Of a stretch of 64,000 nt of DNA, positions 29,607 through 30,351 are shown one piece after another (within the stretch, counting starts at the first letter, position 1; each line of letters starts with the position of its first letter). A program made the position numbers and the translations under genes. The stretch lies in assembly GCA_041487875.1 (NCBI GenBank), contig JBGPOE010000003.1:12398-76397 (forward strand). Direction: 5' to 3'. The notes under the pieces were generated by a model that was given only the letters and a program-made list of their open reading frames with translations, was not told where the DNA came from and made no database searches. This DNA comes from Gemmatimonadota bacterium (GTDB lineage: Bacteria > Gemmatimonadota > Gemmatimonadetes > Gemmatimonadales > GWC2-71-9).

Positions 29607-30351
29607 CGCGCTCGACCAGCTGTTGCTCCCGGCCGAGTGTTTGCTCTGCCGGAACCTGCTGGCGTTTGCCGAGGCGGACCGGCTCGTCTGCGCTCCTTGT
29701 CGGTACCGCTGGCGCCCGGTGCGGCCGCCGTGGTGCGCGCGCTGCGGCCAGCCCGGCCCGAGCTTCGGTCCGTGCCGCCTGTGCGCCCGCTGGCCCGCGG
29801 CGCTCACGTCGGTGCGGTCCGCCGTGTGGCTGGACGGCGGGGCGCGCGTTGCCGTGCACGCCCTCAAGTACCGGGGGCTAGGCCGCGTCGCCCCGGATCT
29901 GGCGGATGTCATGGTGCGGCATCTGCCGCGGCCGCTGGCGGGCGCGGCGCTCGTCCCTGTGCCGCTCGCGCCGCGGCGTCAGCGCGAGCGGGGCTATAAT
30001 CAGAGCGCCCAGTTGGCCACGGCGTTGGGCGCACGCTGGGGCACGCCCGTGCGGGATGTTCTCATCCGGCGCCGCGAGACGCGCACCCAAACGGCGTTGA
30101 CACCGGAAGCGCGCCTGGCGAACGTGGCGGGGGCGTTCCAAGTGCGGAATGGCGAATGCGGAATGCGAAATGAACACCACTCCGCATTCCGAATTCCGCA
30201 TTCCGCATTGGGACCAACGCTCGTTCTGGTCGATGACGTATTTACGACCGGCGCCACGCTCGTCGCGGCGGCCGCGGCGCTCGCGGCGGCGGGCGCGAGT
30301 GACATCGGCGCGGTCACCTTCGGCCGCGCGGCAATACCGGACTTCACTTAG
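29599..30351 (+). CDS. comF: ComF-family protein (amidophosphoribosyltransferase-like), carrying an in-frame 21-codon repeat insertion
   Basis: ORF 29476..30351 trimmed to ATG 29599. N-terminal Cys pairs (CLLC...CAPC, CARCG...CRLC), YNQSAQLA, PRTase motif [14 protein letters not shown]. Confidence 0.8.
30144..30206. repeat. 63-nt imperfect palindrome built from 7-mers: (GCGGAAT-like)x4 - GAACACC - (ATTCCGC-like)x4, inside comF
   Basis: Left arm GCGGAAT GGCGAAT GCGGAAT GCGAAAT (30144-30171), a 7-nt spacer, then right arm ACTCCGC ATTCCGA ATTCCGC ATTCCGC (30179-30206). 9x7=63 nt=21 codons ([21 protein letters not shown]). Visibly AT-richer than the flanks. Confidence 0.85.

Follow-up and report, generated by a model that had tools for sequence, protein, structure and literature searches.

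The element considered here is a palindromic, in-frame array of heptamers at positions 30144–30206 of a 64-kb stretch of DNA (64,000 nucleotides of contig JBGPOE010000003.1 from a Gemmatimonadota bacterium, hereafter termed the window), where it lies within comF, a gene of the ComF family. The reading favoured for this comF element, to which a probability of about 0.5 is attached, is that of a microsatellite palindrome bound to its locus, which homogenises its own units at the DNA level, is swapped by recombination, and is tolerated in a disordered loop of the ComF protein.

Direct reading of the window sequence gave a left arm of four heptamers (GCGGAAT GGCGAAT GCGGAAT GCGAAAT; 30144–30171), a centre or loop (GAACACC; 30172–30178) that is short by comparison with the 14–16-nt loops of most orthologues, and a right arm of four inverted heptamers (ACTCCGC ATTCCGA ATTCCGC ATTCCGC; 30179–30206), all taken on the plus strand. 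Tandem Repeats Finder (TRF) returned a period of 7 for both arms, with 4.3 copies in the left and 4.1 in the right, and a heptamer-dimer pattern was matched seven times against an expectation of 0.87, a count reached in none of 100 shuffles. Inverted-repeat and folding analysis extended the full imperfect palindrome to 30137–30213 on the same strand, with 36-nt arms that are 81% complementary, and no longer inverted repeat is present in the window. As RNA the palindrome had a predicted folding energy of −40.2 kcal/mol (z = −6.1) and as DNA one of −26 kcal/mol (z = −5.8), neither being equalled in 200 shuffles, and the GC fraction of the element was 0.53–0.55 as against ~0.72–0.8 in its surroundings. 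An inverted heptamer hairpin far above chance at 30144–30206 is thus confirmed, and the first-pass annotation, which had described a palindrome of exactly nine heptamers, visibly richer in AT than its surroundings and able to fold into a long imperfect hairpin in DNA or RNA, proved accurate on each of these counts.

The host open reading frame (ORF) runs on the plus strand from an ATG at 29599 to a stop codon ending at 30351, and encodes 250 amino acids with a double zinc ribbon and a phosphoribosyltransferase domain (Pfam DZR_2 and Pribosyltran); its relatives in Gemmatimonadales carry ComF labels. The element corresponds to residues 183–203, downstream of the NVAGAF segment and upstream of DDVFTTG. 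Counted inclusively, these two segments delimit 44 residues in the window ComF and 42–52 in many relatives, as against 26–30 in ComF from other phyla and from Gemmatimonadaceae-like genomes, and the segment is therefore extra, a length comparison that bears out the earlier claim of 21 residues added in frame between the NVAGAF segment and the phosphoribosyltransferase motif. In an AlphaFold model with a mean predicted local distance difference test score (pLDDT) of 63.6, residues 186–204 have pLDDT values below 50 and lie between strands at 180–182 and 208–212, from which the insert is predicted to occupy a disordered, structurally tolerant surface loop. A search of the PDB with the ComF sequence and profile matched only the phosphoribosyl pyrophosphate (PRPP)-loop motif of other phosphoribosyltransferases, and the loop could not be placed by sequence on any solved ComF structure.

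For comparison, 160 comF loci were fetched from genomes and metagenomes, together with one obtained via a close protein, and are referred to as L001 and so on. In around 40 of these loci, all from Gemmatimonadales, the full hairpin occupies one and the same codon position and reading phase (xTG CGG ANN ...), a coincidence that indicates a single origin. The typical orthologous hairpin has a 31-bp stem and a 16-nt loop; across carriers the element measures 63–78 nt, nearly all full hairpins comprise 4+4 units, and 26 hairpin loci align without any gap. Unit-number polymorphism by slippage was not seen in these consensus assemblies, which would hide minority frameshift variants, and the length differences recorded either lay in the loop or tail or were deletions of a whole arm. 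The reading frame was kept through the hairpin in all carriers examined, within-population switching, as at a phase-variable contingency locus, being something that consensus assemblies cannot reveal. The alignment of orthologues proposed in the first-pass annotation as a check on the 21 residues accordingly gave a composite answer: the segment is extra relative to sequences from outside the clade, and orthologous in the ~40 Gemmatimonadales loci, so that an in-frame, hairpin-forming, repeat-built segment accommodated in a ComF loop without breakage of the frame is upheld by the ORF, the orthologues and the predicted structure alike. The gene order tsaC-ptp-aroE-comF-gap-pgk, assessed from pgk, aroE, ptp and tsaC matches with gap confirmed separately, is identical with and without the hairpin, and synteny was rejected as a cause of its presence or absence for that reason. 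As a separate matter, the comF frame of L099 ends prematurely 15 nt past the DDVFTTG segment, with downstream sequence that still resembles the comF 3' end, and either a frameshift or an assembly error would account for it.

The units themselves vary between genomes, and comprise GCGGAAT, GCGGAAC, GCGGATT, GCGGAGT, GYGGGGT, GCGAAAT and GCGGCRT, plus a distant GATCAAT-like form, but within a genome all units on both arms change together. In the gapless alignment 89.3% of cells pair, by comparison with 27–52% in slid controls, and changes on both sides were recorded for 18 of the 31 pairs (83 cells), a result matched by none of 500 shuffles. When agreement was scored at the variable dinucleotide, however, a unit resembled its pairing partner (79%) to the same extent as it did the non-partner units of the other arm (80%) and the units of its own arm (77–80%), as against 22% for the same unit between genomes; among mixed elements the corresponding values were 58% for partners and 59% for non-partners. 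Since partners agree no more than non-partners, the covariation reflects homogenisation of units rather than pair-by-pair compensation, and what is kept is the likeness of all units in both orientations, not the pairing of one given base with another. Mismatches of the G·U and A·C types were equally frequent in the gapless alignment (23 and 23) and close to equal among 47 hairpins by diagonal counting (27 and 24), which argues that the constraint or process is strand-symmetric and acts at the DNA level. An RNAfold-based count that had placed G·U at 2.6 times A·C was discarded as biased, folding both scoring G·U as pairs and picking the registers that favour them.

A neighbour-joining tree of the loci was poorly rooted, and served solely to document the interspersion of unit classes among close relatives. 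Two candidate sources of this allelic variety were considered and rejected. Flip-flop inversion is at odds with imperfections that all AAT-class sequences have on one and the same arm, and with loops that are not mutual reverse complements; the variable region of a diversity-generating retroelement is at odds with unit changes that are uniform and include T>C and G>A, and with the lack of a second copy in the window or flanks.

The loci L002, L093 and L098 have flanks 96.6–98.4% identical, yet their cassettes, of AAT, ATT and AAC types, are only 59–77% identical. A comparison of L002 with L093 over 11.9 kb gave 97.55% identity, the median count being 1 difference in each 100 nt; the maximum, 25, falls in the hairpin window, the cassette differences beginning and ending at the hairpin base. 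In all six of the closest genome pairs (flanks at least 95.9% identical) the cassettes differ; conversely, cassettes 87–99% identical are found in genomes with flanks only 75–90% identical, and over 703 pairs cassette and flank identities are but weakly correlated (r = 0.28). The cassette and downstream tail of L098 match those of L003, with flanks 87% identical between the two, so at least some of the switches are recombinational imports. L093 keeps the idiosyncrasies of an AAT-class cassette while every one of its units reads ATT, a pattern that fits change in place or recombination within the cassette. It was also observed that L002 (QHUK01000009.1) and L003 (QHUK01000017.1) derive from one metagenome-assembled genome, which thereby holds two full tsaC-ptp-aroE-comF-gap-pgk clusters, 87–91% identical and differing in hairpin class (AAT and AAC respectively); two strains binned together is the most likely explanation of this duplication.

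Taken as a sequence of events, the favoured reading would have the palindrome originate a single time, in the part of comF that encodes the loop, in an ancestor of one Gemmatimonadales sub-clade, and remain at that codon. The arms would pair within one strand, either in register or shifted by whole units, and in replication or repair the units would template each other, whether through template switching within a strand or through gene conversion among units of direct and inverted orientation. With units serving as mutual templates, a change in one would be either erased or copied to all units of both arms, so that the unit sequence could drift with no loss of complementarity between the arms or of likeness between the units. 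Whole cassettes also pass between strains through homologous recombination spanning the highly conserved flanks. The 17–26 extra residues would be tolerated in the disordered surface loop, and the 4+4 geometry would look frozen because the reading frame forbids single-unit changes in length. The site is a hypervariable hotspot within a housekeeping gene, and any effect of the messenger RNA (mRNA) hairpin would be a by-product or at most a secondary use. The anatomy, orthology, concerted unit change, hotspot behaviour, recombinational import and lack of dispersal are demonstrated, and the template-switch or conversion mechanism and the neutrality of the element are inferred.

Losses and replacements at the site were also recorded. 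Two loci (L012 and L115) have the left arm only, and P0121/L161, close to the lineage of the window and with a protein 91% identical to the window ComF, has an AAC-type left arm without a right arm; L001 has arm remnants only, L090 a partial deletion, and L118, L123, L124 and L126 no hairpin at all. Relatives lacking the hairpin retain 1.5–3.5 left-arm units plus the 3' end of the right arm, and so are deletion derivatives rather than clean empty sites. Sister lineages have at the comF site a palindrome of the form ACCCCGGGG-loop-CCCCGGGGT with its own arm-to-arm changes (CCCCGCGG pairing with CCGCGGGG), which in L110 and L116 stands beside heptamer remnants, and a CT-rich palindrome adjoins the first heptamer in L081. 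Half-deleted arms, partial deletion and replacement constitute turnover typical of unstable palindromes; as a whole, the losses and replacements fit either selection for a hairpin at the site, or a site that repeatedly generates and tolerates palindromes.

The first of these options constitutes the main rival to the favoured reading, and is regarded as possible but rather unlikely. It holds that the hairpin is selected as a cis-acting RNA or DNA signal punctuating the co-directional operon ahead of gap-pgk, where it could serve as a site for a double-strand-specific RNase, as a protector of the 3' end of the upstream mRNA, or as a pause or roadblock; it would lie inside comF because the comF-gap spacer of the clade amounts to just 9–26 nt. 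A number of observations that favour it also weigh against self-homogenisation. A strong hairpin persists at the site across ComF proteins only 60–70% identical, and unrelated palindromes (the CCCCGGGG type and the CT-rich type) occupy the site in sister lineages, as would be expected were a hairpin selected, such that at least three unrelated sequences (the heptamer, ACCCCGGGG...CCCCGGGGT and CCCCCTCTCTC...GAGAGAGGGGG) form a very stable hairpin at this one place. The 31-bp stem and 16-nt loop are common to many lineages, a constancy for which the frame constraint may not fully account, and neither the geometry nor the placing of the internal loops changes from one unit class to another. Every unit class has its internal mismatches recurring at identical columns (13–15 with 68–70, and 20 with 63), which tells against template-directed correction because such correction should erase them. 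Among AAC-class elements the loops hardly differ between genomes with flanks 75–80% identical, a conservation that needs either recent transfer or constraint. 

The setting of the hairpin adds to the case for its selection. The gap gene (glyceraldehyde-3-phosphate dehydrogenase; 30362–31372, plus strand) starts 10 nt past the comF stop, the TAG of which forms part of the gap ribosome-binding region (TAGGAGCTCTCCGATG; 30349–30364). The first-pass annotation had placed the element about 150 nt upstream of the gap start codon, a proximity that stands, with the distance corrected to 149–156 nt from the end of the element to the gap ATG at 30362. The comF-gap spacer remains at 9–26 nt throughout the hairpin clade, by comparison with 21–142 nt in a Gemmatimonadaceae-like sister group in which the ComF linker is short and free of hairpins, and in which the longer spacer sometimes bears heptamer arrays or hairpins (L016, L131, L135, L140, L144 and L151). 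Synteny with gap and pgk is invariant, and a second in-frame hairpin, in radA, is likewise located within ~100 nt of a gene junction, with an equivalent in the dnaB-radA spacer of L019.

Against these points must be set the absence of any G·U excess over A·C and of any pair-specific compensation, and the consideration that an RNA hairpin has no need of arms built from tandem repeats. Moreover, L001, L118, L123, L124 and L126 have lost the hairpin without acquiring a compensating structure (z = −1.1 to +0.3), yet gene order and the short spacer are unchanged in them, and hypervariability between near-identical strains would be unexpected of a conserved regulatory site. No terminator-like site was detected in 29400–30700, the stem being followed by GCATTGGGACCAACG with no U-tract, even though canonical terminators do occur in the genome, for example at 35165–35193. 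A consensus scan of the same interval gave no sigma-70-like promoter, and an Rfam scan of 29500–30700 at a permissive threshold returned only sub-threshold minus-strand matches to microRNA precursors (E = 0.16–7). Considered together, the equality of G·U and A·C, the missing pair-specific compensation and the want of a U-tract or Rfam match lean, as sequence evidence, against a purely RNA-level constraint, and the mRNA-processing or attenuation site raised in the first-pass annotation is disfavoured to that extent.

Two further observations were made in the same region. A reading of the sequence surrounding 30144–30206 with programmed frameshifting in mind showed no slippery heptamer ahead of the hairpin. 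The gap frame is open upstream for 71 codons, to an ATG within the hairpin (30149–31372), an extension that is probably just an open frame of high-GC sequence.

The first-pass annotation had proposed that a REP/MITE-like element (a repetitive extragenic palindromic sequence, REP, or miniature inverted-repeat transposable element, MITE) had inserted, or expanded, without breaking the frame. Expansion in place is the closer of the two to the evidence; insertion of a mobile element, comparable to the Rickettsia palindromic elements (RPEs), is close to refuted. The palindromic form, the AT-richness, the intact frame and the tolerant loop would all suit a mobile element, and RPEs provide a precedent for palindromic insertions made in frame in housekeeping genes, the added peptide being at a position compatible with the fold (PMC10969869). 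However, no second copy of the comF element came to light in the 64-kb window or across 1.4 Mb of related loci, in a search that did not extend to whole genomes; in those loci dimers of GCGGANN numbered 69 in comF linkers and 13 elsewhere, the latter as scattered, chance singles. Position and phase are orthologous in ~40 genomes, relatives keep arm remnants instead of an empty site, and 30137–30213 has neither terminal inverted repeats beyond the palindrome nor a flanking target-site duplication or other direct repeat. The GTAG and CGTC tags are likewise missing from the palindrome base; REPs are described as extragenic sequences present in tens to hundreds of copies, bearing such a tag and linked to the RAYT transposase (PMC3733652, PMC2817692). 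Construction from tandem units is itself unlike that of REPs, MITEs or RPEs. Nor is the window enriched in the GCGGAAT 7-mer, with 10 copies outside the hairpin as against 6.8 expected for the window as a whole, and a role akin to that of an uptake sequence was rejected on that basis.

The encoded peptide offers a different explanation, namely that the extra 21 residues constitute a functional segment under selection as protein, with the palindrome in the DNA no more than incidental. Every sequence preserves the frame, and certain residues recur (R, G, R ... S-A, R, P, S-A); they are, however, exactly those encoded by the invariant GCGGA/TCCGC core, and the others switch with the unit class (N/I/S, M/L/V/T, F/I/L and H/Q/N). 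The peptide thus varies with the unit, through RNxECGMRN, LRIxDCGLRI..SAIRNPQSA, VRSGxCGVRS and TRNAEGGTRN..SAFRVPSSA, and since it tracks the DNA unit, selection on the peptide is not the driver. The loop is moreover predicted to be disordered, close relatives lack the insert, have half of it or carry unrelated peptides in its place, and a 31-bp palindrome in ~40 lineages would not be attainable by chance, so that this explanation is considered highly improbable. The first-pass annotation had itself named the finding that would have told against a mobile or repeat-derived element, a homologous peptide encoded in distant relatives by non-repetitive DNA. The corresponding peptide does exist in relatives, but repetitive palindromic DNA encodes it in them, and because the peptide shifts along with the heptamer, the segment is neither an ordinary linker nor the product of a coincidental palindrome.

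The second element of this kind in the window is the radA hairpin (25751–25826, plus strand), which consists of GGCGGTCG-like arrays of 8-nt units and their inverse, in frame in the linker of RadA/Sms between the Zn ribbon and the ATPase domain, ~4.4 kb upstream of the comF element, with a DNA fold of z = −4.0. It is present at the same place in ~40 related loci, its units are related by single-base steps (GGACGGGC, GGACGGTC, GGACGGTT, GGAAGGTT and GGTAAGGC), and, like its counterpart in comF, it is a hotspot of divergence between close strains. The unit classes of the two hairpins do not co-vary, L002 and L093 sharing the radA hairpin while differing in comF, and a linked trans-acting factor for both was ruled out accordingly.

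A third way of accounting for the unit identity has the heptads read by a sequence-specific partner, whether a protein that binds DNA, a guide RNA, or a system for defence, restriction or uptake, and treats the unit classes as alleles that frequency-dependent selection would keep polymorphic and recombination would move between strains. It is in favour of such a partner that identity over all direct and inverted copies, rather than pairing, is conserved, that the six closest genome pairs all have different cassettes, that distant lineages show the same classes again, in some cases together with a class-specific loop, that the divergence peak is sharp-edged as at balanced loci, and that both in-frame hairpins are found in genes of a DNA-uptake and recombination pathway. 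Yet no candidate partner was identified, and as each locus has its own unit (GCGGANN in comF, GGACGGGC-like in radA, others in spacers) many partners would be needed; the comF and radA classes show no co-variation from genome to genome, the rest of the window shows no enrichment of the heptamer, and recurrence of classes can arise by convergence among the few single-base variants allowed. Recognition of this kind is therefore judged improbable. Its most developed form, in which the comF and radA hairpins would represent a new class of locus-bound, multi-allelic cassettes in uptake and recombination genes, read unit by unit by a partner, with alleles (AAT, AAC, ATT, AGT and others) kept polymorphic within species by frequency-dependent selection and shuttled by transformation, appears correspondingly doubtful.

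Arrays and hairpins of 7–8-nt units are common in the spacers of related genomes. Inverted-array hairpins were noted in spacers of the conserved cluster in L019 (2495–2602, situated in the dnaB-radA spacer), L140 (2700–2803), L022 (950–1040) and L153 (4409–4479), each with a unit of its own (GAGTTCC, GTGAACA, CAGCGGGA and AGGACTG). Within the window, about five GCGGGAA-like heptamers stand as direct repeats at 16746–16779, in frame in the isocitrate dehydrogenase ORF icd (15590–17212) and without an inverted partner. A GCTGAGG GCTGATG GCTGACG array is present at 55999–56022, at the junction of the ORFs 54713–55996 and 56010–57575. Two intergenic G-rich arrays of GGGGAAA x4, at 4387–4425 (as TTTCCCC) and 14425–14465, are mutually inverted and 10 kb apart, have similar ends (CACG...CTTTC), and are prone to form G-quadruplexes in the manner of Xanthomonas and Nostoc heptamer repeats. 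A palindrome that is not repeat-built, with the common core CCCTGAGCGCAGCGA(A/G)GGG, was found at two unrelated loci (L020, 9739–9810; L143, 1053–1134) and is possibly a genuine dispersed REP-like family in Gemmatimonadaceae.

If self-homogenisation is the correct reading, the comF element would provide a natural case of a repeat-built palindrome persisting for long at a single codon of a housekeeping gene while its units change together, and thereby a handle on template switching or gene conversion at the DNA level in wild populations. On that reading the covariation in comF would mimic conservation of RNA structure without reflecting it, a warning for RNA discovery that relies on covariation, given that none of 500 shuffles matched the element in count-based tests. 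As the marker of a hotspot between strains 97–98% identical, the element is in addition useful for tracking Gemmatimonadales strains in soil metagenomes. Were the hairpin selected instead, an operon punctuation signal would have been placed, unusually, inside a coding loop; were its units recognised by a partner, a new kind of polymorphic element would be present in competence and recombination genes.

A literature search found no earlier description of such elements in Gemmatimonadota, but several known systems resemble them in part. In quasi-palindrome template switching, as studied in Escherichia coli, one arm of an imperfect palindrome templates the other and yields apparently compensatory changes without selection, a process that fits the strand symmetry of the comF element and its lack of a pair-specific signal but does not predict its persistent mismatches. 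Such switching is known as a mutational mechanism at short quasi-palindromes in laboratory reporters, and is not known to have maintained any repeat-built hairpin within a gene over the long term. Arrays of 7-bp heptads, direct and inverted, are bound by the omega repressor of plasmid pSM19035, and tandem 8-bp boxes by MetJ; in these operators units of 7 or 8 bp occur in both orientations, as in comF and radA, and it is the identity of the unit, not the pairing of strands, that matters, as in the comF element. Those arrays, however, belong to promoters or centromere-like sites and are bound by a known cognate protein, whereas the comF and radA arrays are in coding loops, with a unit for each locus.

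With REPs, and with the BIMEs and REPINs (bacterial interspersed mosaic elements and REP doublets) related to them, the comF element has in common the short imperfect palindrome and an mRNA hairpin of the kind that affects transcript stability, but it lies inside an ORF, is single-copy in the sequence sampled, and has no GTAG or CGTC tag. RPEs are closer, in being palindromic, in frame in conserved genes and, like the comF element, accommodated in what is here a low-confidence loop. They are nonetheless of ~100–150 bp and belong to dispersed multi-copy families in many unrelated genes, as opposed to 63–78 nt at a single locus, and it is the comF element that consists of 7-nt tandem units, is orthologous clade-wide and undergoes concerted unit change, the radA hairpin having a different, 8-nt unit.

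Heptamer repeats are over-represented in bacteria, with about four units preferred and some arrays inverted, and polymerase slippage has been proposed as their origin (PMC4692102; PMC4679880). These heptameric simple sequence repeats, including GGGAATC in Xanthomonas, GGGGAYT in Nostoc, the short tandemly repeated repetitive (STRR) sequences of cyanobacteria and TAACTGA in Beggiatoaceae, resemble the comF element in their 7-nt tandem units, about four in number, in their occasional inverted stem-loop pairs, and in a place conserved between related genomes while the sequence varies (PMC4692102, PMC4679880); the G-rich arrays at 4387–4425 and 14425–14465 are of the published kind. The published arrays are by contrast mostly intergenic, have one unit per genome in many copies, and are often G-rich and prone to form G-quadruplexes, whereas the comF element is coding, always inverted as 4+4 units, without G-tracts, and built from a locus-specific unit that differs between near-identical strains. 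It is accordingly a variant of the heptamer microsatellites and of the in-frame palindromic elements, with unusual evolutionary behaviour.

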